This document shows, one piece after another, positions 3,332-60,723 of a stretch of DNA of 64,000 nt; the stretch's first letter is position 1; each line of letters opens with the position of its first letter. The translations under genes and the position numbers were made by a program. Source of the stretch: Candidatus Parcubacteria bacterium (lineage in GTDB: Bacteria > Patescibacteriota > Patescibacteriia > Patescibacteriales > UBA12075); assembly GCA_963827735.1 (NCBI GenBank), contig CAWHBO010000003.1, forward strand, positions 252,676-316,675, read 5' to 3'. The notes under the pieces were generated by a model. That model did no database searches. It was not told the origin of the DNA and saw only the letters and a list, made by a program, of their open reading frames with translations.

Positions 3332-3437
3332 AAAAATCTCAAAATACAAATAACAAACCCGAAAAGTCCCGTTGGGACCTCGTGTCCTTTACGGGATCAC
3401 AAATAAATTCAAAATTAAAATTGATAAAATATTGATT

Positions 3438-3771
3438 TTGTCATCCCGGAATTTTTTTTGGAGCGTCAGCGAGAAAAAAAATATCCGGGATCCAGGGTTA
3501 GAAGGAAAAAATACGGATTATCCAATAACACTTATAAATAAAAATACAGGATTTAGCTTTTCTAACGTTTTATGATAAATCTTATAAAAATTATATAATT
3601 TTTTCATTTTTATATATAAAATGCTGAAAAAAAATTTTAAAAGAAAAAATATCCCCTATCATGACGAGCGATTCCAAAAAATCTTAACAATACAAGGCTC
3701 ATTCCCCTAAACCCTGGATCCCGGATATTTTTTTTCTCGCTGACGCTCCAAAAAAAATTCCGGGATGACAA
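3438..3771. mobile_element. MITE-like element: two inverted copies of a 62-bp self-complementary unit around an AT-rich core of about 210 bp
   Basis: 3438-3499 (TTGTCATCCCGGAATTTTTTTTGGAGCGTCAGCGAGAAAAAAAATATCCGGGATCCAGGGTT) is the reverse complement of 3710-3771. Each unit is itself a hairpin (ATCCCGGA+T8 pairs with A8+TCCGGGAT). A third copy lies at 30238-30299. Confidence 0.5.
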
Positions 3772-3843
3772 ACATGATATTTTAATTATCTTATTCTTGT
3801 TTTAAAATTTAGCCATTATTTACAAAATTAAAATTTTATCCAT

Positions 3844-5248: not shown

Positions 5249-5404
5249 GGGTAACCTCCTAAAAATAAAAAATGAAATTTAAAATTGAAGTTTGAAATCA
5301 TCAAAAATACGAAAAATTTAGGTTGGGTTGAAAGTTAACAAAGAGCGATATTGACTATATTATATCTAACTGATTGATTATGTCAAGGTTAGCAAAATAA
5401 AAAA

Positions 5405-5436
5405 ATATCCTGCCCCGCAAAATGCGGGGCAGGATA
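5405..5436 (-). terminator. Rho-independent terminator of the rpsU-yqeY unit
   Basis: ATATCCTGCCCCGC / GCGGGGCAGGATAT stem with an AAAA loop. A T-run follows on the minus strand. It lies 28 nt past the yqeY stop. Confidence 0.65.
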
Positions 5437-5463
5437 TTTTTATAAAAATGTTGACAATAACTT

Positions 5464-5922
5464 TTACTTCACTCCCAAAACCTTCCTCACGATATCTTTA
5501 ACAAGGATCCCGTCCGCCCGTCCTTTGAGCTTTGACATAGCCTGCCCCATGATGGCGCCGAACTGATTCATGTCAGCGTCTTTCATTGGTTCCACAATCT
5601 CGCGGACCGCATTTTCTATCTCGGCCGCCGACATCTGAGCAGGAACATATCTTTCAAAAATCGCAATTTCCGCTTTTTCCGTTTCCACCAGATCGTTGCG
5701 TCCGCCTTGCTCATATAAAGCGATGGAGTCTTTGCGTTTCTTCATCTCCGTCCCGGCGACTGCGATCACGTCATCGTCGCTCAAGTCCTCTTTCTGGATC
5801 TTCTCAATCTTCTTGTTCTTGAGCGCCGCAAGGAACATTCTAAGAGTGCCGAGTTCGGAAACCCGTTTTTCTTTCATCGCGATCTTCATGTCGTCATTTA
5901 TTTTTTGCCAAAGTGTCGGCAT
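5464..5922 (-). CDS. yqeY: GatB/YqeY domain protein
   Basis: 152 aa with the typical YqeY N-terminus (KINDDMKIAMKEK..., LRMFLAALKN). It lies directly downstream of rpsU, which is the conserved pairing. Confidence 0.85.
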   Translation of the reverse strand: MPTLWQKINDDMKIAMKEKRVSELGTLRMFLAALKNKKIEKIQKEDLSDDDVIAVAGTEMKKRKDSIALYEQGGRNDLVETEKAEIAIFERYVPAQMSAAEIENAVREIVEPMKDADMNQFGAIMGQAMSKLKGRADGILVKDIVRKVLGVK

Positions 5923-5950: not shown

Positions 5951-6187
5951 TTACCATCTGCCTCTCGGCTCTTCTTTGATCTTGCCGATCTTTTTCAGAT
6001 AATCCATTTTTTCTTTGACTTTTTTGGAATACAAGGCTGAGTCCTTGAGCTGGCGCTTATTTTTTTTCGGATGAAAAAAATTGCGGCTACGCACTTCTTT
6101 CAGTTTTCTGGACCTGATCAAAGTCTTGTTGAACCGGCGCAAAAACGCCTCAAAACTTTCCCCTTTGTTTCTTTTAAATTCTACCAT
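5951..6187 (-). CDS. rpsU: 30S ribosomal protein S21
   Basis: 78-aa basic protein with an FEAFLRRFNK...EVRSRNFF pattern matching S21. AAAGGAAGGTG lies upstream of the ATG. Confidence 0.85.
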   Translation of the reverse strand: MVEFKRNKGESFEAFLRRFNKTLIRSRKLKEVRSRNFFHPKKNKRQLKDSALYSKKVKEKMDYLKKIGKIKEEPRGRW

Positions 6188-8521: not shown

Positions 8522-8616
8522 AACCCACAAATCAACAAATTGCTACAAATCAACAAATCATATTTGACGTTTTTCAAATATTTGTAGATTTGTTGTAATT
8601 TGTTGATTTGTGGGTT
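8522..8616. repeat. ORF-less long hairpin (ACAAATC / CAACAAAT units)
   Basis: 8522-8541 (AACCCACAAATCAACAAATT) is the exact reverse complement of 8597-8616. The inner arms are imperfectly complementary. Confidence 0.65.
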
Positions 8617-10261: not shown

Positions 10262-10398
10262 AATATTCAATACTCAATGATCAATCAATAATCAATATTC
10301 AATATTCAATATTCAATTTTCAAACTTTGCGTTTATCTTATTGATTATTTGAATATTAAAATATTGAATGGTTATTGAGTATTGAATATTGATCATTC
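10262..10398. repeat. ORF-less intergenic hairpin (ATTCAAT heptamer arms)
   Basis: (ATTCAAT)n on the left. 10265-10278 (ATTCAATACTCAAT) pairs with 10374-10387 (ATTGAGTATTGAAT). The element occupies most of the LCP-der spacer. Confidence 0.55.
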
Positions 10399-10435
10399 CA
10401 GATTAAAAATTCAGTATTTTAATAAAATTAAAATT

Positions 10436-11974
10436 ATGAATAATCAACTTCCCGCCGTCGTCATCTTCGGTTGTCCGAACGCCGGAAAATCAACTTTGTT
10501 CAACGCGCTCTGCGGAAAAAGCCACGCGCTGGTTTCTGATACTCCCGGCACGACCAGGGACCTGAATGTCGCCAAGATTGATTGGCAAGGCCATACGATT
10601 GAAATTGTGGATACGGGAGGCATTCTGGATATCGGCATGCTGACAATCTCAAAAAGAAAAGAAAAGAAAATAAAAAACCGCACCACGACTGATGTTGAAA
10701 AAATTGACAAACTTGTCCAAAAAAAAGCTTTTGGAGCGCTCATAAAAGCCGATCTGGTGCTATTTTTGGTTGACGCGCGCGCGGGACTGCTTCCCCAAGA
10801 CAAACAACTGGCTAACTTCGTAAAAAAACATGTTGCCAAAGAAAAAATCGTTCTCGTTGCCAACAAAGTTGACAGCCCCAGGCTCAGGGAGGGAGTGCCT
10901 GATTTCAACAAGCTGGGACTCGGGGAACCAAACATGATTTCCGCCACCACCGGCTCCGGTACCGGCGACCTTTTAGATAAGATAATAAGTTATCTGCCAA
11001 AACAAACGAAATTAGAAACAAATAATATAGATACAGATTCGACATCCCTAATTTCCAATTTCCAATTTCCAATTTCCAATCAAATTAATGTCGCCATCAT
11101 CGGCAAACCGAACGTCGGCAAATCCAGCCTCATCAACAAAATTTTAGGTGAAGAAAAAATCATTGTCAGCCCCATAGCGCATACGACCAGAGAGCCAAAT
11201 GATACGAAAATAAATTACCAAGGCCATATCATAAATCTGATAGACACGGCCGGAATTTCCCGAAGCGGCCAAAAGAACGAAAAAAAGCAAAGCGACAAGA
11301 ACACTTTGGAAAAATTGTCCATCCAAAAATCCCTGGAGACTTTGAACCGAGCCGATATTGCCATTCTCGTAATTGATATCAAAGAAGGGCTGACGAGCCA
11401 GGAATCAAAACTGGCGGAAGAAATCATGAATTCCCGGTCCAGTTTGATCATTCTGGCCAACAAGTGGGACTTGATTAAAGAAAAAAATACCAAAAAAGCC
11501 ACTTCCGACATCTATGCAGACTTGCCTTTTGCCGCCTGGGCGCCGATTCAATTTGTTTCCGCCCTTACCGGACAGAAGATTGAAAAAGTTTTGGATTTGA
11601 TCTTGAAGATTTCTGAGGCGCGCAAAATTTCCATCAGCGATAACGCTCTGTCAAAATTCCTGCATAACACCGTAAAAAAACATTCCCCCATCAAATCCTG
11701 GGGCGTCAAAAAGCCATACATCCATGAGATCAAGCAAGATCGAACCGACCCGCCCGGATTTTCCATCCGGATTGGCGCGGATGATAACTTAAGCGAGGCT
11801 TATGTCCGCTTCATCCAAAAACAGCTCCGGGAAAAATTCGGCTTTCTCGGGACGCCGATCCAAACTTACGTTGACCGCAACAAAAAAGTGCACGGGCATA
11901 ACGATGGCTATGACAACCCGAAGAAAGATAAAAAGAGGAAGCCGGCAGGGAGAGTCAATAAACCGGTCAGATAA
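10436..11974 (+). CDS. der: Ribosome-associated GTPase Der (EngA)
   Basis: Two G-domains (GCPNAGKST and GKPNVGKSS P-loops, two DTGG/DTAG and NKxD boxes) plus a KH-like C-terminus. The start is set at MNNQLPAVVIFG because the ORF-track start at 10382 runs into the spacer hairpin. Confidence 0.9.
   Translation: MNNQLPAVVIFGCPNAGKSTLFNALCGKSHALVSDTPGTTRDLNVAKIDWQGHTIEIVDTGGILDIGMLTISKRKEKKIKNRTTTDVEKIDKLVQKKAFGALIKADLVLFLVDARAGLLPQDKQLANFVKKHVAKEKIVLVANKVDSPRLREGVPDFNKLGLGEPNMISATTGSGTGDLLDKIISYLPKQTKLETNNIDTDSTSLISNFQFPISNQINVAIIGKPNVGKSSLINKILGEEKIIVSPIAHTTREPNDTKINYQGHIINLIDTAGISRSGQKNEKKQSDKNTLEKLSIQKSLETLNRADIAILVIDIKEGLTSQESKLAEEIMNSRSSLIILANKWDLIKEKNTKKATSDIYADLPFAAWAPIQFVSALTGQKIEKVLDLILKISEARKISISDNALSKFLHNTVKKHSPIKSWGVKKPYIHEIKQDRTDPPGFSIRIGADDNLSEAYVRFIQKQLREKFGFLGTPIQTYVDRNKKVHGHNDGYDNPKKDKKRKPAGRVNKPVR
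11050..11080 (+). repeat. TTCCAAT heptamer block translated in frame inside the der linker
   Basis: AATTTCCAATTTCCAATTTCCAATTTCCAAT (31 nt) is identical to the reverse complement of 37412-37442. It is translated ISNFQFPISNQ between the two G-domains. Confidence 0.8.
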
Positions 11975-12032
11975 AAACTATTTTATCATGCCCCTGTTCA
12001 AATTAGGAATACGTAAAACGAAGGATCTAATT

Positions 12033-12158
12033 TTTAATTTACAATTTTCAATTTTCAAACAATGATTGAATTTTCAATTTATCAATGTTTGAAACATTAA
12101 GGAATTAAAAAATTGAAAATTGTTTGAAAATTAAAAATTGAAAATTGAAAATTTTATT
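12033..12158. repeat. ORF-less intergenic hairpin (TTGAAAA / TTTTCAA units)
   Basis: Left arm AATTTTCAATTTTCAAACAAT, central near-palindrome ATGTTTGAAACAT, right arm 12111-12155. The right arm is 45 of 45 identical to 21188-21232. Confidence 0.6.
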
Positions 12159-14377: not shown

Positions 14378-14425
14378 TACTGTATATTTCATATAACAGC
14401 TGATTGTCGTTTAATTCAAAAAGTA

Positions 14426-14518
14426 AAAATCAAAATGCAAAATGACAGTTTAAAATTAAAAAATAATTTTGAATTTTACATTGTCATTTTGCATTTTGAG
14501 ATTTGCATTTTGCATTTT
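14426..14518. repeat. ORF-less intergenic hairpin (GCATTTT / AAAATGC units)
   Basis: 14430-14447 (TCAAAATGCAAAATGACA) is the exact reverse complement of 14482-14499. Extra GCATTTT units follow the right arm. Confidence 0.7.
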
Positions 14519-14548
14519 GGAAAATAATAATTTACAAATATAAATAGT

Positions 14549-17564: not shown

Positions 17565-17708
17565 TTACTTGCCTTCTTTTTGCGCAACTGTCTCCTTCGG
17601 GTTTTTCCCCAAACCGCAATAAATGATCCTAGCTTCTGTTGGTCCAGTAGCGCACTTTTTGTAATAATCCAAAGAAATTCTTGTGCCCTTTTTTCTTGTG
17701 TCGCCCAC
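17565..17708 (-). CDS. Candidate 47-aa basic protein (GTG start)
   Basis: AAGGAGG lies 5 nt upstream of a GTG. Translation: MGDTRKKGTRISLDYYKKCATGPTEARIIYCGLGKNPKETVAQKEGK. The ORF ends 18 nt before the bidirectional terminator. No homolog recognised. Confidence 0.35.
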   Translation of the reverse strand: MGDTRKKGTRISLDYYKKCATGPTEARIIYCGLGKNPKETVAQKEGK

Positions 17709-17790
17709 GATTACCTCCTTGGTTATAGGTTGTTGAATATAAAATAAACAGCGATTGTATGCTATGTGTTGTTTTATTGTTTTGTTGTTT

Positions 17791-18081
17791 TTATTCTTCG
17801 TCTTTCTTGTTCTTCCCGGTATGCTCCTTGATCACTTCAACCAATTTCTTTACTCCTTCTCCGATCAGCAGTAAATATGAGGTTGAGTGTTCAATTTTCT
17901 CTTTGATCATCTTAACCAGTTCATCCAATTTTCCCAAACGGTCGCGCATCTCTTTGACCACTCTGAAAAACTGCTGGAGGATGCGGGCGAAATAGTAAAT
18001 CGTCCAGCAGAGAAAAGCGGCCAAGCCAAGGATGGATACGCCGATTGATAAGTTTAAGAAGTCTTTTGAGGTTTCGAACAT
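17791..18081 (-). CDS. Hypothetical single-pass membrane protein (96 aa)
   Basis: One clear TM segment (SIGVSILGLAAFLCWTIYYFA) followed by a charged helical tail. The ATG lies 3 nt from the cassette arm. Confidence 0.5.
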   Translation of the reverse strand: MFETSKDFLNLSIGVSILGLAAFLCWTIYYFARILQQFFRVVKEMRDRLGKLDELVKMIKEKIEHSTSYLLLIGEGVKKLVEVIKEHTGKNKKDEE

Positions 18082-18083
18082 AA

Positions 18084-18593
18084 GATTACGAAATACGAAT
18101 TTGTACGAATATACGAATCCATATTTATTGCTAATATATATTTAGTATTCTTTTATACTTAAGCCCGTTGCTAGTAATTGAGACTAAAAGGCCTAATTTT
18201 AAATTTGTGATTTTTAAATAGCCTAACAACTGTTTTATATTATTATTCGAAAAATACTCTCCTCTTTTAAGTTCAACTACAATTTTTTCTTCTATAACAA
18301 AATCCATAAAATATCTTCCAATCACCTGCCCCTTAAAACTTACTTTATATGGACATTGCGGTATAAATTTAATTTTATTTTCTTTAAAAGATATTTCCAG
18401 CGCTTTTTGATAATGCTTTTCAAGCAACCCTGGACCGAGTAAATTATTTACTTCAAATAATATTCCTATTATCTTATAACTCAAATCCGGATAAAGAATA
18501 TCTTGATTTCTAACCCCTCCTTGCATAGTAAACGACTACAAAAATATATATTAATAAAATTCGTATATTCGTACAAATTCGTATTTCGTAATC
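18084..18593. mobile_element. Inverted-repeat-flanked GxxExxY cassette
   Basis: 18084-18118 is the exact 35-bp reverse complement of 18559-18593. The single ORF 18131-18526 sits in the loop. Confidence 0.75.
18131..18526 (-). CDS. GxxExxY family protein (PD-(D/E)xK-like small protein)
   Basis: 131 aa containing GLLEKHY (the GxxExxY signature) and a downstream DFVIEEKIVVELK (D...ExK-like) segment. Confidence 0.85.
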   Translation of the reverse strand: MQGGVRNQDILYPDLSYKIIGILFEVNNLLGPGLLEKHYQKALEISFKENKIKFIPQCPYKVSFKGQVIGRYFMDFVIEEKIVVELKRGEYFSNNNIKQLLGYLKITNLKLGLLVSITSNGLKYKRILNIY

Positions 18594-21025
18594 TAAAAGT
18601 CCCGTATCGCCGCCTCAAACCGCTCCTCCAATCTTTTCACCAATTTCCCCTGCAGATCGTCGATCTCTGCCGCTGTCAAAGTTCGGTCCGCCTGATAGAT
18701 GATGTGGAATGCCATGTTTTTTTTATCTTTACCGATCTTGTCGCCCGTATACACGTCAAACAAATCAACGCTCTTTATATACTCATGAAAATCCACGATC
18801 TCTTTCTGAATATCGTTATAAAGGGTTTTTTTGTTGATGACAAAAGCAAGATCGCGGATAACCGGCGGAAATTTCTCAAAGCCGATAAATTTCTGCTCTT
18901 TTCCTGATTCCGCCTTCTCTAACTCTCTGATGCTGATTTCCGCGACAGCCGCTTGTTTCTTTATCCCGAGCCTTTTAAGCGCTTCTTTGCTTACAATCCC
19001 AAGCGTTCCCACCGCTTGTCCGTCTGCGCTGATAAGAGTGTTGGTCCCCGCCTCTAACCATGCTTGTCCATTTTCCATTGGATCAAAAAATGAGGCGAGA
19101 GAAAATTTCTTAAACAAGTTTTCAATCGCGCCCTTAGCTTCAAAAAATACGCTCTCCCTTTGTTCTCCGGCAAAGATAAGGCCAATCCTTTTTTCCTGAA
19201 AAGGCAGATTACCGGCATCGCTGCCGCCTTTTTCTATGCCGCCCTCCAAGGAAGAATAAATGTTTCCGATTTCAAACAATCTGATGCTCTCAAATCTTGC
19301 TTGATTGGTCTTTACATTGTTAAGCAGATTGGGGGTCAAGCTCTGGCGGCACAAAGAGTGCTGTTTGACAATCGGGTTCATGAGCTTTAAATGCGAAGAA
19401 GAATCAAGGCCCAGCTTTTGGATCTGCTCTTCGCCGACAAAAGAATAATTGCAAACTTCCGTCATAGCCGGGCTTCCACTCAAACAAAGCCTGATTTTTT
19501 TGAGAAGCTCCCATTCAAAATTTCTTTCTGGCGGGGTCATTTCAACAAGCGGCATGCTTGGGCAAAGATTGTCATAGCCGATGATGCGGGCGACTTCTTC
19601 CGCCAGATCCTCTTTGATGGATATGTCTTTGGTGGCGCGCCAGGTCGGGACAAGCGCGGAAATAAGTTTATCTTTTTTTACCGCTATAAACCCTAAATTG
19701 CTAAGAATCTTTATCACTCTCTTACTGTCCAATTCCTGACCTAAAAATTTGTTCAGCCAATGCATGCTGATCTCAATCGGCCCTTGGTTTAATTGAAAAT
19801 CTTTTTCATCCGCCATCAGCCCCAAGATTTCCGCCTCCGGGCAGATCTGCTTGATAAGCTCAACCGTCCTGAGGACGGCTGTTTCACACAGATTGGGATC
19901 CAAAGATTTTTCAAATCTGGCTGAAGCTTCAGTGCGGAGCCCCAGCCTTTGGGAAGTTTTCCTGACTGACACAAAATCAAAATTTGCCGATTCAATGATG
20001 ATGCTTTCCGTATCATCTGATATCTCGCTGTTTTCCCCGCCCATCACCCCGGCAATGGCGATCGCTTTTTCTTTATCGGCGATCACCAGCATCTCTTCAT
20101 CCAGTTCCCTTTTTTTTCCGTCTAAAGTAACCATTTGCTCTCCCCTTTCGGCGCGCCTGATGATGATATCGCAATCTTGGGCGCCGGCGGCGCAAAGATA
20201 GTTTTTGTCAAAAGCGTGCAGCGGCTGGCCGAATTCCAACATGACATAATTCGTGATATCAACGATGTTGCTGATGGGCCTGACTCCCGCCGCCAAAAGT
20301 CTTTTTTGCATCCATTCCGGAGAAGGTTTTATCTTGATGCCGTCAACGGCCACAGCCATATATCTGGGGCATAATTTTTTATCCTCCACTTTAACATTAA
20401 CCTTGAATTCGCTTCCGGAATTGGCGATCAGGCTCTGACTGGTTTTATATTCTTTGAATTTTGCCCCAAGAAAAGCGGCCACTTCCCGGGCCATGCCATA
20501 GTGCCCCCAGAGGTCAGGGCGATTGGTGATGGATTTGTTGTCCACTTCATATATGACATCTTTCAATTTTAAAAGCTGTCCGAGCGGCTCTCCGACTTTC
20601 GCTTTCTTGTCCAAAATCATGATACCGGAATGATCCAAGCCGAGACCGAGTTCGTCCGGAGCGCATAGCATGCCTTCTGATTTTTCGCCTCTGATCTCCG
20701 CCGGTTTGATCTCCATTCCATTCGGCAACACCGCTCCGATCATGGCTACCGGCACTCTCTGTCCCGCTTCAATGTTCAAAGCCCCGCAAACGATCGTCAG
20801 TTCTTTGCCGGGCACCTCCACAACGGCAATCCGGAGCTTATCAGCATTCGGGTGAGCTTTAACGCTCTTGATCTTGCCGACGATGACAGCTTTAAATTTA
20901 TCCGCTTCTTTAAAAACGCCGTCAATCTCAACGGTATGCATGGTCAATCTTGCTCCCAGCTCTTCCGGAGTCAAGCTTTTGGGAAGGTCAACGTAATCTT
21001 TTAGCCAATCCAATGATAGAAACAT
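18593..21025 (-). CDS. pheT: Phenylalanine--tRNA ligase beta subunit
   Basis: 810 aa with an N-terminal tRNA-binding domain (AHPNADKLRI), B3/4 and B5 regions, and a C-terminal FDX-ACB-like end. It is adjacent to pheS. Confidence 0.95.
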   Translation of the reverse strand: MFLSLDWLKDYVDLPKSLTPEELGARLTMHTVEIDGVFKEADKFKAVIVGKIKSVKAHPNADKLRIAVVEVPGKELTIVCGALNIEAGQRVPVAMIGAVLPNGMEIKPAEIRGEKSEGMLCAPDELGLGLDHSGIMILDKKAKVGEPLGQLLKLKDVIYEVDNKSITNRPDLWGHYGMAREVAAFLGAKFKEYKTSQSLIANSGSEFKVNVKVEDKKLCPRYMAVAVDGIKIKPSPEWMQKRLLAAGVRPISNIVDITNYVMLEFGQPLHAFDKNYLCAAGAQDCDIIIRRAERGEQMVTLDGKKRELDEEMLVIADKEKAIAIAGVMGGENSEISDDTESIIIESANFDFVSVRKTSQRLGLRTEASARFEKSLDPNLCETAVLRTVELIKQICPEAEILGLMADEKDFQLNQGPIEISMHWLNKFLGQELDSKRVIKILSNLGFIAVKKDKLISALVPTWRATKDISIKEDLAEEVARIIGYDNLCPSMPLVEMTPPERNFEWELLKKIRLCLSGSPAMTEVCNYSFVGEEQIQKLGLDSSSHLKLMNPIVKQHSLCRQSLTPNLLNNVKTNQARFESIRLFEIGNIYSSLEGGIEKGGSDAGNLPFQEKRIGLIFAGEQRESVFFEAKGAIENLFKKFSLASFFDPMENGQAWLEAGTNTLISADGQAVGTLGIVSKEALKRLGIKKQAAVAEISIRELEKAESGKEQKFIGFEKFPPVIRDLAFVINKKTLYNDIQKEIVDFHEYIKSVDLFDVYTGDKIGKDKKNMAFHIIYQADRTLTAAEIDDLQGKLVKRLEERFEAAIRDF

Positions 21026-21087: not shown

Positions 21088-21232
21088 AATTTTCAATTTT
21101 CAATTTACACCCATTCGGGTACAAGCAATTTTCAAACAATGAATTAATTTTCAATGAATAAATGTTTAAAACATTTAAAAATTATAGAATTGAAAATTGT
21201 TTGAAAATTAAAAATTGAAAATTGAAAATTTT
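21088..21232. repeat. ORF-less hairpin between pheS and pheT (TTGAAAA / TTTTCAA units)
   Basis: Left arm TAATTTTCAATTTTCAATTT. The right arm 21188-21232 is identical to 12111-12155. A central ATGTTTAAAACAT palindrome is present. Confidence 0.65.
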
Positions 21233-22306: not shown

Positions 22307-22314
22307 ATTTTTAT

Positions 22315-22470
22315 CTCATAACTCATAACTTAGAACTCGTAACATTTTTCTCATAACTCGTAACTTGGAACTCATAACTTTTTTTAAAAAATCTTTTAAG
22401 GTTAGATGTTATGAGTTATGAGTTATGAGTTATGAGTTATGAGTTATGAGTTATGAGTTATGAGTTATGT
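22315..22470. repeat. Hairpin with a (GTTATGA)x8 tandem heptamer arm
   Basis: There are eight perfect GTTATGA units at 22408-22463, then GTTATGT. The left arm (CTCATAACTCATAAC..., 22315-22379) is complementary. The element spans the spacer from the pheS start to the stop of the upstream gene. Confidence 0.75.
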
Positions 22471-26105: not shown

Positions 26106-26165
26106 GGGGAGAGAATTTTGAGTTTTACACTTTTATTTATTATACCACAAAAAGAGGTGATTTTA

Positions 26166-26188
26166 CAAAAAAAGCCCTGAGAGGGCTT
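26166..26188 (-). terminator. Rho-independent terminator downstream of the helicase gene
   Basis: AAGCCCT-CTC-AGGGCTT on the minus strand, followed by a T-run. Confidence 0.55.
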
Positions 26189-26213
26189 ATAAATTAAAAC
26201 TTATTTATCATTC

Positions 26214-26290
26214 TAAATTCCACCCCACTTTAGTGGGCTTTAATATAATAAATTTTAAAACCATAAAGCCGACTGAAGTCGGGTAGAAAT
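26214..26290. repeat. Single A-B two-hairpin unit (same family as 29341-29575)
   Basis: AAATTCCACCCCACTTTAGTGGGCTTTA ... ATAAAGCCGACTGAAGTCGGGTAGAAAT, directly after the helicase stop codon. Confidence 0.7.
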
Positions 26291-26300
26291 TATTAAAAAA

Positions 26301-29273: not shown

Positions 29274-29340
29274 AATGAATAAATCTTACGACAAATTTTT
29301 TTTCCGGAATGACAAGAAAATGATTTTAAAATTGATAATA

Positions 29341-29575
29341 TAAAGCCGACTAAAGTCGGGTAGAAATAATATATATAATTTTATTATTATTTGATAAATT
29401 CCACCCCACTTTAGTGGGCTTTATTATAAAAAATTTTAAAACCATAAAGCCGACTGAAGTCGGGAAGAAATAATATATATAATTTTATTATTATTTGATA
29501 AATTCCACCCCACTTTAGTGGGCTTTATTATAAAAAAATTTAAAACCATTAAGCCGACTGAAGTCGGGAAGAAAT
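29341..29575. repeat. Tandem repeat, 104-bp period, about 2.3 copies, each with two small hairpins (B and A)
   Basis: B units (TAAAGCCGACT[A/G]AAGTCGGG) start at 29341, 29445 and 29549. A units (CCACCCCACTTTAGTGGGC) are at 29397 and 29501. The inter-unit sequences are identical between copies. Confidence 0.8.
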
Positions 29576-29596
29576 TTTTTATAAATTTTATGCCGT

Positions 29597-30237: not shown

Positions 30238-30299
30238 TTGTCATCCCGGAATTTTTTTTGGAGCGTCAGCGAGAAAAAAAATATCCGGGATCCAGGGTT
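30238..30299. repeat. Solo copy of the 62-bp self-complementary unit
   Basis: Matches 3438-3499 in the same orientation. Confidence 0.8.
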
Positions 30300-30344
30300 T
30301 AAAGGTAAAATTTATGTTTATCAAATTATGTGGGTGAGGGGATT

Positions 30345-31338: not shown

Positions 31339-31989
31339 TTACATCCATAAATTTGCCAGATTATTCCGGTCGCGCTGCCATTTTTCAGGATTTTCAATAA
31401 TATATTGACGAATGTTGTCATATGAACTTTCATTGCGGATTATGCGGTCATAATACCTTGACTGCCAGGTGAAATTTGGGATTATTATTTTTGATCCATG
31501 TGTGACGGCTGATTTATATGAACCGATGATAACCGGCAACGATTTTGGTTTGGGTGATATTTTTTGCATTTTACACGATGTTGGATTTAATTCGTTATCC
31601 GCATTCGTTGCATAAATCATGGTGTTATCCAAATCCGCGTCCGTAGAGACGAGGCATGCCTCGTCTCTACACGGGGTGTTTTCCGCTGCATTTGCATTAT
31701 TGTTACACGTCATGTTATCAATCACCACAATCCCATGCACATGGTTCGGCATCACGATATGTTCATTCAAAATAACATTTTTAAAATGCTTTGAAATTTC
31801 TAGCCAATATTTATCTGCTAATTTCCCGATTTCATTCAAAACCATTTTCCCATCAACCACATTCCCGAAAAACATTTCCTTTTGATGCGTACAAATCGTG
31901 ACAAAATATAGTCCATCTTGCGAATAATCATATCCATCCATGCGCGCGGAATCTATACGGTATTTATTTTTAAATAAACCGTTTGACAT
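31339..31989 (-). CDS. REP-associated tyrosine transposase (RAYT, IS200/Y1-like)
   Basis: 216 aa with HUH (PNHVHGIVV) and WQSRYYDRIIRNE...YIIENPEKW motifs. The linker between them contains the REP palindrome. Confidence 0.85.
   Translation of the reverse strand: MSNGLFKNKYRIDSARMDGYDYSQDGLYFVTICTHQKEMFFGNVVDGKMVLNEIGKLADKYWLEISKHFKNVILNEHIVMPNHVHGIVVIDNMTCNNNANAAENTPCRDEACLVSTDADLDNTMIYATNADNELNPTSCKMQKISPKPKSLPVIIGSYKSAVTHGSKIIIPNFTWQSRYYDRIIRNESSYDNIRQYIIENPEKWQRDRNNLANLWM
31643..31670. repeat. 28-bp REP palindrome inside the RAYT ORF
   Basis: GTAGAGACGAGGCATGCCTCGTCTCTAC is a perfect palindrome, translated ...PCRDEACLVST.... Confidence 0.85.
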
Positions 31990-32083: not shown

Positions 32084-32111
32084 GTAGAGACGAGGCATGC
32101 CTCGTCTCTAC
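32084..32111. repeat. 28-bp REP palindrome, second identical copy
   Basis: The same 28-mer lies between the LamG gene stop (32121) and the RAYT start (31989). Confidence 0.85.
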
Positions 32112-35100: not shown

Positions 35101-37502
35101 TCAGATATATCTCCCGAAGGAAAATCATAAACCACATAGCTTACTTCCAAACCATTTGCCCAAAATTTTAAATTTTCAAGATTTGTTTTTCCGTCATAGG
35201 TTACACAAATATAATGCCAAATACCTGTAGCAAAATCATAATTCATGGTAGCAATTAAATAGCTCACATCAAATTGCTGATAAAAAGCAATACCGGATTG
35301 ATAATATAAATTCCAACCAATCATTCCAGTCCCTTGATCTTTACCAATAATATATTGATCGCCCAAACTATCAGGTTTTAACCAAGCACATATTGTTTTA
35401 TTGGTTAGATTATCAAGCGAAGAATCTGAACCAGCATAAATACCGTCGTCAGTTCCATTAAAACTCCCCCCATTCCCATACTTCCCCGCTGTCGTAGAGG
35501 CATCGCCATAATAGGTGCCGGTGTTGCCATTGCCACTCGCATCAATCGCTCCGCTCGTGGTGGCGCTTTCATCAAACTTCCAATACCCCACCAATCCATC
35601 CGTCATCCATTTATCAGAGGCCGAACCAAAGGCGGCCGTCGCACCCTTGGGGGTGCTTTGGCCTGCTAAACCGGCGGCATAGTCCTGCTTGATTTGATCC
35701 GCCGTGCGGGCGTAGGGGTAGATTTTGACTTCGTCCAAATATCCAATCACACCTTCGTAATTATCTGCCGCGTAACCAACTCTCATGCTAGTATAATCAG
35801 TATCATTCGTAAATTTACCGTTATTACTTCCCGCACCGACCGATATTGGTTTAGAAATTCCATCTATATAGATACCATATTCTTCATCGGCTGTTAGGCA
35901 GACATGGTGCCAGGCATTATTGAATAACGAACGATCTGTATCTGTGAAACCGATATCTTGATTACCGCCATCATATATCCATAAATGAATCACTTCATCT
36001 GTCAAAAACGAACTAGCTCCGTTTCCAATCTGAAGATCAAATGCACTGCTTGACCCGTCACTGAAACTTAATAAAGTTTGCGATTGATCACTGCCAGTCT
36101 TTACCCAGGCGCAATAGGTACCATTGGATAACAATAAATTCGCATAACTGCTTACACCGGCATAATCATTGCCGTCAAACCATAAACACTTCCCGGCAAC
36201 GCACTCACTCTCCTCTTTCCAAACCGCGCCGGTGATGGTGCCGTTGTTATTGTTGGCGCTGGAATCATTGGCCACGGTGCCGTAGCCTTCATCAAACGAC
36301 CAGTAGCCGACAGGGCCGGGGCCGGTTTCTTCTGTTTGAGCCGAAAGGAAAGTGGTTGGGTCGTTTTGATTGTTGTATTCGGTGGCGATCCAGGTGGCAG
36401 AACGTACTGAACGGGAAATTTTGGTTTCATCAATCAATCCATGAAATTCATAAATCAAATCAACAAAAGTACCAAAGTATAAATCATTGGCCGAATCATC
36501 CGCGCGGCCAGCACCATCTTGATACCCGGTAGAACTTGCTATACCATTTCTATATAATATAATATTATTTCCGCCAATTCCGTTTTGTGTAGCGCAAAGA
36601 TAATGCCAAATGTTAGTCGCAATTACTGGTGCCGAATTTACTCTAAAAGTATATGAAGAAGAACTGCTATAACTTGAGCCAAATCCACCGGTTTGTTCTA
36701 AATACAAATCCCAGCCAGCATTAGTAACGCTATCCAATTTACTAACTATAGCTGGATACTCATTGGGTGTAGTTATTGGCTTTACCCAAGTACAAACGGT
36801 AAAATTTTGCAATCTATTCAAACTGGCACTTTTGTTCACCTTGACATAATCATTATCACCATCAAAACTAAACGCCCCGCCCAATTTTCCGTTTGGCGTG
36901 CTGGAGGCATTATAACCGGCTACCCCGTTATTGCCAAATGCCGTGCTGTCACTGCCTGATGCGGTCGCATCATTCGGAAAATGCCAGACTCCGACAAAGT
37001 TTTCATCCCAAACACTCTCAGCCGTTTCCTGACTACCCACCCCCGCGTTGCCATAATACATAAAAATATTAGCGTCCACTCCCTGTGTCATCGTCGGCAT
37101 CTTGACCCAAGCCACCAGCGCGCCGGTCGTGGTGGCGAAAGATTCAATTTCATGGGATAATTTTTCGCCGTTGGCGGATATAAAAATAATGTCATCAGCG
37201 TCCGCTTGCGCATGCGTTCCCAAATCAGCATCAGTCAGGCTGACCAACATGGGGAAGTTTTCCAAATTGCCGGCGATCTTTGAACCATTGATCGTGATAG
37301 CTTTGCGGTAATTCCAAGAGTCGTTCCACCAGGTCGCTTCTACTTCACTGGGTTTTTTTATGAGAAAAAATATGGTTGAAGTAATAACAATCAAGCCAAT
37401 AACAATAAGAAATTGGAAATTGGAAATTGGAAATTGGAAATTTAAAAATCTTCTCAAAGAAAGAGTTGGTTTTTCTAATATAATTTTATTAAATAATTTC
37501 AT
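32121..37502 (-). CDS. Giant LamG (concanavalin-A-like lectin) repeat surface protein with an N-terminal DUF2341-like domain
   Basis: 1793 aa with an N-terminal TM segment and WWNDSWNYRKAITI...NFPMLV (DUF2341-like). At least 7 modules end in the LamG_3 signature (L[IM]D[DE]V[KR]I[YW]N.A[LR]...I). Confidence 0.9.
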   Translation of the reverse strand: MKLFNKIILEKPTLSLRRFLNFQFPISNFQFLIVIGLIVITSTIFFLIKKPSEVEATWWNDSWNYRKAITINGSKIAGNLENFPMLVSLTDADLGTHAQADADDIIFISANGEKLSHEIESFATTTGALVAWVKMPTMTQGVDANIFMYYGNAGVGSQETAESVWDENFVGVWHFPNDATASGSDSTAFGNNGVAGYNASSTPNGKLGGAFSFDGDNDYVKVNKSASLNRLQNFTVCTWVKPITTPNEYPAIVSKLDSVTNAGWDLYLEQTGGFGSSYSSSSSYTFRVNSAPVIATNIWHYLCATQNGIGGNNIILYRNGIASSTGYQDGAGRADDSANDLYFGTFVDLIYEFHGLIDETKISRSVRSATWIATEYNNQNDPTTFLSAQTEETGPGPVGYWSFDEGYGTVANDSSANNNNGTITGAVWKEESECVAGKCLWFDGNDYAGVSSYANLLLSNGTYCAWVKTGSDQSQTLLSFSDGSSSAFDLQIGNGASSFLTDEVIHLWIYDGGNQDIGFTDTDRSLFNNAWHHVCLTADEEYGIYIDGISKPISVGAGSNNGKFTNDTDYTSMRVGYAADNYEGVIGYLDEVKIYPYARTADQIKQDYAAGLAGQSTPKGATAAFGSASDKWMTDGLVGYWKFDESATTSGAIDASGNGNTGTYYGDASTTAGKYGNGGSFNGTDDGIYAGSDSSLDNLTNKTICAWLKPDSLGDQYIIGKDQGTGMIGWNLYYQSGIAFYQQFDVSYLIATMNYDFATGIWHYICVTYDGKTNLENLKFWANGLEVSYVVYDFPSGDISDDSSHNLMIGMVEDTNYEFNGKMDEIRIYNRILSANEIRKLYEWAPGPVAHWKFDEATGATAYDSVASSSFAGGNHGSISGATWAQGKYGGALDFDGVDDYVNIGEPNDLMISGGMTVTAWIKHGEALTSNQYVIGKMGGSGQRAWGLSVEGEASPDEYAFTIAADGTNIRQSYAYANPEEWTFVVGIFEPSSYLRFYLNGIMTYEDTVGIPGTQYWNNGLDINIGNRGALDLPFDGLIDDVRIYNYARTQKQILEDMNAGNLAVKSPVLHLSFDEGYGAVAHDASIFGNDGLLQPGTGGANTASSAMWTKDGKLGGAMEFDGVDDGVKTISNLDITGKIATVSFWMKHQPISSYTPEIFLTYSWTPDASENGFFIDISDNSSGYDPPSLGSICTIMISSSDNYSAYCTNNRYDDNQWHNVIAVMDRNQDTAEAQTIIYIDGDLVNKTVLGIYDYVHTNTYDNDPVYLGYLNDSYSDGSLNGLMDEVKIWNFALNEDEIKAEYNLGKAAVLGSDASRDNNGTAVTGANKEYCIPGDTAVCTPPVLEMKFDELSGGTVFDTSGNGNNGAITGATWDFVGKKGGALDFDGGDYVYSTNQSIGEGSALTVNVWVNFDNLTVNDEIFVNRLRSGFYGWSLYREMVSSGGSIVFLVTNSSNTENGVESDDSFVEKGWHYITGVYDGSYIRLYSDGKSIATPVAFTGNLKDTTHQLCIGGEWNGSSCQNSYNGSLDDVKIYNYARTPAQIAWDYNGGKPVAHWKFDECAGGVVHDDSGNGNHGQLFLGATGVTATGTCASSSNSFWYNGRVGKNNSGGSFDGGSDYALINSFDLSSTPTISLSFWVKKSSFDNIEGLFELTTDTSSFNNGFAVYVDSGIGGCPAGTIGAYTRGNVGDNANCWATPRIDVWHHFVYIGDKNANGINENQLYIDGILQTPSSRIVNADNTNNFGDEPLYFGSRAGSMSFLTGLIDDVKIWNYALTEEQVKMEYGGGAVRFQ

Positions 37503-37944
37503 AATTTCTAATTTCCAATATTTATTTATCTTTATAAACTAATCTACTGCAAGATTTAATATAAGTATTTAATTTCATGTGTAATATATTTAATTCTTTC
37601 ATTAATAAATCATATTCATTATCAAGAATTATATTTCTTTTGTTAAGTAAAAATGTCCAATGTTTTGATTCCATCAGTGAGCCTCTGGAATTATAATAAA
37701 ATTTTATCTTATCTTTGTGATGATATCGCCCATAGCCTTCGGCGATATTAGCACCAATAGAATCTATGGCTGTAATAAACTGATCTCCAATTACTTTCTT
37801 GATTTGCCAATGCATTTTTTCATAGACTTTCCAGGCGATATTGCTTAATTTTAATGACAATCTATATATTTCTAAATCACCTAATTTCAAATATTCTGAC
37901 ATAATTTCCAATTTCCTAATTTCTAATTTCCAATTTCTAATTTC
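37409..37944. mobile_element. Four-helix-bundle cassette bounded by TTCCAAT/ATTGGAA heptamer blocks
   Basis: Block 1 at 37409-37443 is (GAAATTG)n. Blocks 2 (37503-37519) and 3 (37901-37944) are (AATTTCC/AATTTCT)n in the opposite orientation. Confidence 0.7.
37522..37911 (-). CDS. Four-helix-bundle protein (family formerly annotated as 23S rRNA intervening-sequence protein)
   Basis: 129 aa with DQFITAIDSIGANIAEGYGRYHHKDKIKFYYNSRGSLMESKHW, typical of the family. Confidence 0.9.
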   Translation of the reverse strand: MEIMSEYLKLGDLEIYRLSLKLSNIAWKVYEKMHWQIKKVIGDQFITAIDSIGANIAEGYGRYHHKDKIKFYYNSRGSLMESKHWTFLLNKRNIILDNEYDLLMKELNILHMKLNTYIKSCSRLVYKDK

Positions 37945-60166: not shown

Positions 60167-60183
60167 GGGGATGCTTTTTGTTT

Positions 60184-60721
60184 AAATTCCAAATTACAAA
60201 TAACAAATTACAAATAATATCAAAAATCCAAATTTCAAAACAAATTTCAAAACTTTATTTTGATTTTTCCAAGATTTTACAAAATATCTTTTTCAGTTCC
60301 TCTGCTTCCTGGATTAATTTTTCAATCTCTTCTTTGAATATATTATCATTATTGGCTTTTATAATTTTTAACCAAAAATTGCTTTCTTTCGCTTCCTTGC
60401 GGCATATTTTTATTCTCATAAAAAATCTTTTTTGCTTAACGCTTCATTGGCTTCAATATAGTTTGCCCCAACTGAACCGCTAGATCTTACAACTTGCTTT
60501 CCATCCTCAGTGTTACTGACTGTTTTATATAATTTTTTCAAAAATTTTCTGACATCAATCGCAAATTCCCGTGTCCTATCCTCCAAATCATAAATTTTTT
60601 TATTAAATATTTCTGTCATTTGAATTTGTTATTTTGATATTATTTGTCCCGCTCTTTATATCTTTTAGTAAGCGGGATCCCGCTGAAAGCGGGAAAATTT
60701 GTTATTTGTAATTTGGAATTT
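60184..60721. mobile_element. Inverted-repeat-flanked (26 bp, perfect) four-helix-bundle cassette between two giant genes
   Basis: 60184-60209 (AAATTCCAAATTACAAATAACAAATT) is the exact reverse complement of 60696-60721. The right arm ends 2 nt before the stop of the upstream giant gene. The left arm lies 18 nt upstream of the 6008-aa gene ATG. Confidence 0.8.
60255..60619 (-). pseudogene. Four-helix-bundle gene split by a 1-nt frameshift (67-aa plus 54-aa parts with an ATGA overlap)
   Basis: Part 1 (60416-60619) ends ...ANYIEANEALSKKDFL*. Part 2 (60255-60419) reads MRIKICRKEAKESNFWLKII.... Together they reconstitute a full-length family member. The junction GATTTTTTATGAGA lies in homopolymer runs. 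Confidence 0.7.
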
Positions 60722-60723
60722 AT

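Follow-up and report, generated by a model that had tools for sequence, protein, structure and literature searches.

A GxxExxY gene in an inverted-repeat cassette at the pheT junction of a Candidatus Parcubacteria genome, probably a copy of a palindromic repeat element

Why should a small open reading frame (ORF), enclosed in a perfect inverted repeat, occupy the whole space between the stop codon of pheT and the start codon of the next gene? The question is raised by a 64,000-nt stretch of a Candidatus Parcubacteria bacterium (assembly GCA_963827735.1, contig CAWHBO010000003.1, positions 252,676 to 316,675 of the forward strand; hereafter the window), in which the segment in question, here called cassette 1, lies at positions 18083-18594 on the minus strand. 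The initial annotation regarded it as a lone, selfish-looking GxxExxY ORF inserted into a housekeeping operon in the manner of the intervening sequences (IVSs) of rRNA. It is very likely that cassette 1 is an inserted member of a conserved element family. The overall best explanation, which we consider probable, is that cassette 1 is a copy of a widespread palindromic repeat element, in which a promoter-less GxxExxY gene lies between arms built of TACGAAW arrays.

Structure of cassette 1 and its encoded protein

The features of the locus are as follows.

18593-21025, minus strand: pheT, phenylalanine-tRNA ligase beta subunit, the upstream host gene (TIGR00472, 4.1e-224)
18559-18594, minus strand: 5' arm of cassette 1 in gene sense, AGATTACGAAATACGAATTTGTACGAATATACGAAT, four TACGAAW units, overlapping the pheT stop codon by 2 nt
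18527-18558, minus strand: AT-rich leader of 32 nt from the 5' arm to the ORF start, without a Shine-Dalgarno (SD) motif
18131-18526, minus strand: GxxExxY gene of 131 amino acids (aa), a predicted minimal PD-(D/E)XK nuclease (TIGR04256, PF13366)
18083-18118, minus strand: 3' arm of cassette 1, 1 nt before the downstream ATG
17791-18081, minus strand: downstream host gene, conserved next to pheT, for a small 96-aa membrane-like protein

The two 36-nt arms are fully (100%) complementary and are separated by 440 nt, while the longest perfect inverted repeat in shuffled versions of positions 17900-18800 averaged 9.5 nt and reached at most 12 nt (100 shuffles). The perfect repeat originally described was thus exact but one base too short per arm, at 35 nt. 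The arm ends are CTACGAAAT...ATTTCGTAG. The right arm covers two bases of the pheT stop codon (18593-18595), and the left arm stops 1 nt short of the ATG (18079-18081) of the next minus-strand ORF; the 511-nt spacer between the two genes is otherwise filled from stop to start as had been claimed. RNA folding of the whole spacer closed with a 38-bp terminal stem (minimum free energy -136 kcal/mol, z = -6.9), in agreement with the view of the spacer as one stem-loop, and the loop holds a single ORF on the same strand as the 810-aa pheT, with pheS just upstream of the latter. Profile searches found no family match above threshold for the 96-aa downstream protein. Promoter-like sites in and around cassette 1 were at chance level only, and Rfam returned nothing for the region at gathering thresholds; at relaxed thresholds a neighbouring hairpin was hit, and only by spurious matches to miRNA precursors. 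No rRNA was found in the window. Furthermore, SD motifs are nearly absent upstream of genes throughout the window and in the pheT spacers of relatives (L002-L026), with leaders that are rich in AT (...aataatttt ATG). Heptamer arrays are otherwise known from Bacteroidota and Cyanobacteria, which are likewise SD-poor.

The 131-aa protein matched TIGR04256 (GxxExxY) at 1.3e-32 with 112.5 bits (cut-off 35) and PF13366 (PDDEXK_3) at 1.2e-30 with 106.7 bits (cut-off 22), which bears out the family first read from its signature. Residues G31, E36, D75, E85, K87, Q99, L111 and R126 are invariant in 39 homologues, and these include all four predicted catalytic residues, E36, D75, E85 and K87 (E...D...ExK). 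The AlphaFold2 model (predicted local distance difference test, 90.5) is a minimal PD-(D/E)XK domain, whose nearest solved folds in Foldseek were Cas4 SSO0001 (E = 2e-5, TM 0.56), lambda-type exonucleases, archaeal tRNA-splicing endonucleases and the Hjc resolvase; these matches to the model permit no subfamily assignment, and no solved relative in the PDB was detectable by sequence. Codon identity of homologues (including Bacteroidia copies) to the window gene was 75-86% at position 2 while position 3, at 38-49%, was saturated, indicating that the protein is under purifying selection. The closest homologue, P0002, shares 80% identity and also lies in a pheT-like context.

Insertion, dispersal and conservation of the element

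The initial annotation proposed looking for an empty site in the pheST loci of close relatives. The relatives nearest to the window locus are distant, with best PheT matches of 53-55% identity in metagenome-assembled genomes (MAGs) of the Falkowbacteria/Parcubacteria type, and genes in the related loci were called simply as ORFs; a scan of metagenome contigs with a protein pattern of the PheT C-terminus found no close relative. The 96-aa gene directly follows pheT in 49 of 80 related loci, and in 20 of these 49 Patescibacteria loci the spacer is an AT-rich 15-55 nt (median over the loci, 80 nt), the empty spacers again being without an SD motif. On the metagenome contig L107, from a distant relative, pheT is followed in the same order by a 68%-identical GxxExxY gene, with decayed but recognisable arms, and a 72%-identical 96-aa gene. 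On another metagenome contig, L108, a 67%-identical GxxExxY gene lies between the genes for an unknown 225-aa protein and a Peptidase_M16 protein, and its arms equal the window arms at 33 of 33 aligned positions. These comparisons indicate that cassette 1 is an insertion into a normally short AT-rich spacer. The empty sites and the cassettes of L107 and L108 thereby uphold the claim of a discrete insertion cassette in a protein-coding operon. The junction is polymorphic for presence and absence of the cassette, and the ORF travels with its arms; relatives with an armless ORF, and arms lacking any such polymorphism, the outcomes named in the initial annotation as refuting, are thus both excluded. 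Other repeats occupy the same spacer elsewhere: an ORF-less hairpin of TAACGAG units in L001, a hairpin of TACAAAT units in L030, and, in L024 (6470-6562), degenerate direct repeats of GCGAAT/ACGAAT type, solo and without a partner. The spacer of L003 (6434-6531) holds a mini-hairpin of TCCGAAT units. The repeats of L024 and L003, which are among the closer relatives, may be relics of a lost cassette.

The cassette design is shared by the protein family. In Falkow-, Doudna-, Saccharibacteria and further Patescibacteria, 15-17 of 19 GxxExxY homologues (42-57% identity) have inverted repeats immediately on either side of the ORF. In a survey of 20 cassettes, some of whose sites are orthologous and hence not all independent, the upstream neighbour was co-directional with the cassette in 18 of 19, 15 of 20 had the upstream stop at -6 to +5 nt relative to the 5' arm, and 16 of 20 had a co-directional downstream start no more than 28 nt from the 3' arm. 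The arms consist of TACGAAW/TACTAAA units in arrays whose polarity relative to the ORF is constant in every genome, and the same motif recurs in Bacteroidota-like contigs (L109-L111) and in a sugar-epimerase operon of 50% GC (L112-L115). ORF and arms are inherited as one discrete element, at orthologous and at unrelated sites alike; some of the alignment identities are inflated by low-complexity arms.

Most copies of the arm have no ORF. The arm core of 31-33 nt, TACGAAATACGAATT-N(0-2)-GTACGAATATACGAAT, occurs exactly in the genomes of 25 species and in 63 metagenome contigs, the species covering many Patescibacteria classes and Bacteroidota including a Chitinophaga, often with several copies per genome. 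Among 93 exact instances (the ORF-bearing, hairpin and solo ones counted across 88 loci, some loci being orthologous or duplicated between collections), 11 accompany a GxxExxY ORF, all 11 being paired with a second arm across a loop of 404-744 nt; another 33 form short hairpins without an ORF, their loop at most 150 nt long, about 43 are solo arms, two have a long loop without a detectable GxxExxY ORF, and four at contig edges were not classifiable. ORF-less copies thus outnumber ORF-bearing ones by about 7 to 1. The long loops of L154, which holds a tRNA gene and a membrane-protein ORF, and of L170, which holds only other heptamer arrays, were rejected as cassettes. ORF-less hairpins of the arm core also sit stop-to-start, for example just upstream of rplK in L116 and of gapA in L120. 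The element is therefore an insertion cassette, as the initial annotation had it, but not a lone ORF in a stem, its arms being a conserved TACGAAW array found mostly without the ORF. In L121 (a Bacteroidetes MAG, about 5400-5513, minus strand), L139 (Chitinophaga, about 6030-6110) and L126, the arm core is accompanied by extra tandem arrays, for example four 17-nt units CTACGAAATACGGGTAT before it or two to three tandem copies of the 3' arm after it, so arms can amplify locally.

Arm identity to the window arms was 85-100%, compared with the 38-49% at ORF codon position 3. From these values, which include Bacteroidia copies, the arms are conserved across phyla far beyond neutral expectation, and far more strongly than pairing alone would require. 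Because arms share their motif between genomes, pairing was assessed in two ways, against the scores of non-cognate arms and by the covariation of the insert between units. The cognate 3' arm was the best partner of the 5' arm in 13 of 17 loci (mean arm-pair score 26.9 for cognate vs 15.0 for non-cognate pairs), and 13 of 25 arm pairs, where 3.6 were expected, had a complementary hypervariable 0-2-nt insert, a count of 13 that none of 5000 shuffles reached. Counted once per locus, the insert was complementary in 6 of 7 ORF-bearing copies vs about 4 of 12 ORF-less hairpins. The two arms of one copy thus co-evolve.

Cassettes, hairpins and repeats elsewhere in the window

The window was also said to contain two further cassettes carrying four-helix-bundle genes, and both were recovered by their arms and by matches to TIGR02436/PF05635. 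Inverted pairs of period-7 arrays, furthermore, fill many of the window's spacers, including all three junctions of the pheS-pheT operon. The features concerned are the following.

37409-37944, minus strand: cassette 2, with arms 37409-37456 and 37897-37944, 79% complementary, of GGAAATT/GAAATTR heptamers
37522-37902 (37911 from a TTG start), minus strand: intact four-helix-bundle ORF of cassette 2 (TIGR02436/PF05635)
60183-60722, minus strand: cassette 3, with perfect 27-nt arms 60183-60209 and 60696-60722, of ACAAAT-type units
60416-60619 and 60255-60419, minus strand: four-helix-bundle ORF of cassette 3, split, with the break at a T6 run
22307-22469, minus strand: ORF-less heptamer hairpin of (CTCATAA)x8 paired with TTATGAG-type units, extending from the stop codon of the preceding gene up to 9 nt short of the pheS ATG
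21088-21230, minus strand: ORF-less heptamer hairpin of GAAAATT/AATTTTC units in the pheS-pheT spacer
14413-14519, plus strand: ORF-less heptamer hairpin of GCAAAAT units upstream of topA
12029-12153, plus strand: ORF-less heptamer hairpin of AATTTTC/GAAAATT units
10262-10411, plus strand: ORF-less heptamer hairpin of AATATTC/GAATATT units
8522-8616, no strand assigned: ORF-less hairpin of ACAAATC units, with 37-nt arms, 92% complementary, between divergent genes

In the relatives of cassette 2 the arm motif follows the protein clade: the closest ones, L100 and L101, have arms of the same heptamer, and the motif is GAAATTG at 66-67% protein identity and GATATTR or GTAATAC at 50-61%. An ATG within the loop, at 37502, may be the start of the gene that follows cassette 2, whose translation would then include the 3' heptamer arm (NFQFPISNFQF). 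In L101, around 1860-1990, a TAA is followed directly by ATG AAA TTT CCC AAT TTC...; the product, MKFPNFPISQFLLISFVLIIGIFYFGQTAFG, is a signal peptide with the heptamer arm as its n-region, and the start is clear there. The two halves of the cassette 3 ORF (67 aa and 54 aa) overlap at ATGA near the T6 run (60416-60422), and one extra T would restore a single ORF; the split could reflect a pseudogene, a homopolymer sequencing error or programmed slippage.

Repeats of other kinds were also seen. A solo AATTTCC x4.4 array at 11050-11080 lies in frame inside the ORF of a Der/EngA-like GTPase, is read as ...LISNFQFPISNQ... just before the second P-loop (GKPNVGKS), and has apparently been absorbed into the inter-domain linker. 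A different repeat family has inverted arms of 90 nt at 3410-3499 and 3710-3799, which are 89% complementary around a 210-nt loop and fill a 512-nt spacer, and their unit CCCGGAATTTTTTTTGGAGCGTCAGCGAGAAAAAAAATATCCGGGATCC recurs at 30290-30344, upstream of the gene at 30244. A third repeat family, at 26106-26300 and 29274-29596, is built of roughly 104-nt units, of which 29340-29591 holds 2.4 tandem copies; every unit has two small GC-rich hairpins, CCCGACTTCAGTCGGC and GCCCACTAAAGTGGGG. The window also holds a genuine REP/RAYT-like pair: at 31339-31989 on the minus strand there is a 216-aa ORF with a weak match to the REP-associated tyrosine transposase (RAYT) profile NF047646 (1.9e-12, below the cut-off), and a perfect 28-nt GTAG-tagged palindrome, GTAGAGACGAGGCATGCCTCGTCTCTAC, occurs twice (31643-31670 and 32084-32111), once upstream of this gene and once within its coding sequence (...CRDEACLVST...).

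Relation to known elements, rival explanations and significance

The IVS of the Coxiella burnetii 23S rRNA has a length of 428-444 nt, a 28-bp stem and a four-helix-bundle ORF, its 5' arm contains tandem GACAGAT heptamers in a strain-variable copy number, and RNase III cleaves it within the stem (PMC4990558). In bacteria of the Candidate Phyla Radiation, four-helix-bundle ORFs occur in both 16S and 23S insertions (PMC11270868). Like the cassettes, the ORF-bearing IVSs of Coxiella and Leptospira measure about 0.45-0.5 kb and have a long stem with heptamers in the 5' arm; in both, ORF-less and ORF-bearing forms coexist and the ORF is sometimes decaying (PMC4990558, PMC11270868). Cassettes 2 and 3 encode the very protein family of the IVSs (PF05635/TIGR02436). 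The likeness to rRNA IVSs pointed out at the outset therefore holds for stem length, overall size and arm heptamers (PMC4990558), and since the anatomy is the same, only the host transcript differs. Cassette 1 departs from the IVSs in lying stop-to-start between protein genes instead of in an rRNA helix, in carrying a PF13366 PD-(D/E)XK GxxExxY protein and not an S23p/PF05635 four-helix bundle, and in having an arm sequence conserved across phyla; RNase III excision, moreover, is demonstrated for the IVSs and inferred for cassette 1.

REPIN/RAYT systems (PMC3116915, PMC3337134) resemble the cassettes in that a gene lies between two inverted copies of a short repeat, the repeat is dispersed intergenically as hairpin doublets and singlets outnumbering the gene-bearing copies, and elements persist for long at orthologous sites. 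Unlike in REPIN/RAYT, the cassette 1 protein is a 131-aa PD-(D/E)XK protein instead of an IS200-like Y1 (HUH) transposase, the arms are arrays of 7-8-nt units instead of one GTAG/CGTC-tagged palindrome, and the gene-bearing cassettes are co-oriented with their host operons. GxxExxY genes are, according to family annotation lore, multi-copy per genome, and RAYT genes are usually single-copy. Neisseria Correia elements and MITEs (miniature transposable elements with inverted repeats) processed by RNase III are small inverted-repeat elements that are co-transcribed with their neighbours and whose stems are RNase III substrates, and eukaryotic Foldback transposons have long inverted arms of short tandem repeats; the cassettes differ from all of these in that no transposase partner or target-site duplication was identified for them and that their ORF-bearing form encodes a predicted nuclease of an unrelated family. 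An integron cassette, which has a single attC hairpin at the 3' end of its ORF, was rejected, since here the ORF is enclosed between the two arms of the repeat and no integrase was present among the ORFs examined near the cassettes.

Intergenic arrays of TAACTGA heptamers are found in Beggiatoaceae, Cyanobacteria and Bacteroidetes (PMC4679880), and in Xanthomonas, where the heptamer is GGGAATC, 70-75 occur as convergent inverted pairs (PMC4692102). These arrays and the cyanobacterial short tandemly repeated repetitive sequences share with the cassette arms tandem 7-nt units in spacers, often ending beside start codons, and the capacity to be translated when inside ORFs (PMC4679880, PMC4692102). 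The two studies, in contrast, draw no link to GxxExxY or four-helix-bundle ORFs or to IVSs, and the cassette 1 arm is a fixed 31-33-nt composite and not a pure tandem array.

Considering these results, we propose the following scenario for cassette 1. The cassette would be transcribed by read-through from the pheST promoter, and its stem of 36-38 bp would form in the mRNA. The stem may render the 0.5-kb insert tolerable through excision of the loop by RNase III, as in rRNA IVSs. A perfect 36-bp RNA duplex is a canonical RNase III substrate, and given also the IVS precedent the loop would probably be excised; by analogy, we put the processing of this particular stem at about an even chance. Alternatively or in addition, since neither the pheT stop nor the next start is farther from the stem base than a ribosome footprint, a ribosome terminating on pheT would open the base of the stem and free the sequestered SD-less start, coupling being kept across the insert. 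Finally, the encoded nuclease may recognise TACGAAW arrays as its cis sites and would then act in trans to propagate or maintain copies with and without the ORF, in the way RAYT serves REPINs. Such recognition in trans is suggested by the arm being conserved beyond pairing, being specific to the cargo family and occurring without the ORF at about 7:1, and nuclease-mediated propagation, modelled on RAYT, is a tentative proposal that we rate as somewhat doubtful.

Several observations weigh against the palindromic repeat element with a mobilising nuclease. No direct repeat that would mark a target-site duplication was visible at five junctions (window, L107, L108, L116 and L120), where the flanks are 0-8 nt and AT-rich; such short residual flanks may simply reflect insertion into the very short spacers of a compact genome. 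Within the 64-kb window the TACGAAW array is present at cassette 1 only, and the pheT-site cassette appears to have been kept across deep divergence (L107), so movement is rare. Non-enzymatic four-helix-bundle proteins occur in the same kind of hairpin with other heptamers, and the cargo protein therefore need not be the mobilising enzyme. Many arm mismatches, furthermore, are G/T alternations (TACGAAA vs TACTAAA) that are not wobble-compatible in RNA; unit identity thus matters besides pairing.

The hairpins might instead be host-beneficial operon punctuation, that is, RNA structures for processing, stabilisation or translational coupling, with GxxExxY and four-helix-bundle proteins as accessory factors and nothing mobile today. 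Hairpins do stand stop-to-start at every pheS-pheT operon junction and in many other spacers, ORF-less copies sit in ribosomal-protein and glycolysis operons of other genomes, orthologous sites have kept their cassettes across deep divergence, purifying selection acts on the ORF, the lineage lacks SD motifs, and the strict co-orientation would suit a role at the RNA level. A bare spacer of 15-55 nt nevertheless suffices at the same junction in relatives (20/49), other lineages have different heptamer hairpins or none at the pheT site, the same arm and ORF recur between unrelated genes, one four-helix-bundle copy in the window is frameshifted, and the arms of ORF-less copies are decaying. Gain and loss of an element fits these observations better than a fixed host function, and we regard punctuation as unlikely.

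A free-standing homing-endonuclease gene, which would cut the empty pheT junction and be copied in by repair with the arms as an incidental feature, would account for a predicted nuclease fold with an intact active site, for presence and absence between conserved genes and for junctions as tight as those of free-standing homing-endonuclease genes in phages. This is very unlikely, as conservation within the element is highest in the arms, which are mostly found without the ORF, the same cassette lies between unrelated gene pairs that share no target sequence, and the same architecture carries four-helix-bundle cargo with no nuclease. That an ordinary large hairpin or terminator merely adjoins an ordinary small gene, or that a defence or toxin gene adjoins an unrelated repeat, is hardly credible. 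Long AT-rich hairpins are common in this genome, but the arm is conserved across phyla and tied to the ORF family in 15-17 of 19 homologues and 11 of 11 core instances; an intrinsic terminator was rejected, with no terminator-like site in 17600-18800 and an AT-rich 36-bp stem around a 440-nt loop in place of a GC-rich stem with a T-tract. The one match in PADLOC, to a generic PD_DExK profile, was weak (E = 1.7e-4) but could speak for a defence gene; a toxin or defence island was rejected, there being no PHROGs match for the protein, no defence-system partner gene near cassette 1 and no Rfam family.

The cassettes are thus best described as the occasional ORF-bearing members of a dispersed family of repeats, which resembles REPIN/RAYT more than it does a lone selfish gene, because most arm copies are ORF-less and ORF-less heptamer hairpins stand at the operon's other junctions. 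In a wider and more speculative proposal, which we think doubtful as a whole, GxxExxY and four-helix-bundle proteins with their family-specific heptamer arms would form one large ancient class of palindromic elements in the operon spacers of SD-poor lineages, each protein recognising its own arrays and propagating both forms, as a counterpart of REPIN/RAYT with another enzyme, with rRNA IVSs and intergenic heptamers as special cases. The hosts of such a class would be Patescibacteria and Bacteroidota, probably also Cyanobacteria and Xanthomonas, and the stem would make the insertions translationally and transcriptionally silent.

Ribosomal RNA IVSs with four-helix-bundle ORFs, the presence of both protein families outside rRNA and intergenic heptamer arrays are already known. 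In a literature search conducted mostly without subscription journals, so that prior mention is possible, no paper was found on GxxExxY or four-helix-bundle genes as hairpin-bracketed stop-to-start operon cassettes, in line with the initial annotation, nor one linking these genes to heptamer arrays or reporting this arm sequence. The repeat family of the GxxExxY cassette is apparently undescribed. In Pleurocapsa sp. PCC 7327 (NC_019689, 2,412,782-2,413,162), a 23S_rRNA_IVP gene located 85 nt after cmr3 and 5 nt before cmr2 was read as having a Cas-associated function (PMC3936711); with its tight co-oriented placement, this locus looks like another such insertion. Cassettes in cas or biosynthetic operons may thus have been taken for functional partners, and heptamer arms can be mis-called as coding sequence. 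The cassettes show that essential operons, in bacterial genomes that are among the smallest, can accommodate inserts of about 0.5 kb precisely between two cistrons, which raises the question of how hairpins preserve operon expression where SD motifs are unused. With the element family, a role in the genome would be assigned to GxxExxY/PDDEXK_3 and the four-helix-bundle "23S rRNA IVS protein", both very large families of small proteins that are uncharacterised, and the element family would join three phenomena so far treated separately, namely rRNA intervening sequences, intergenic heptamer repeats and REP-like palindromes.

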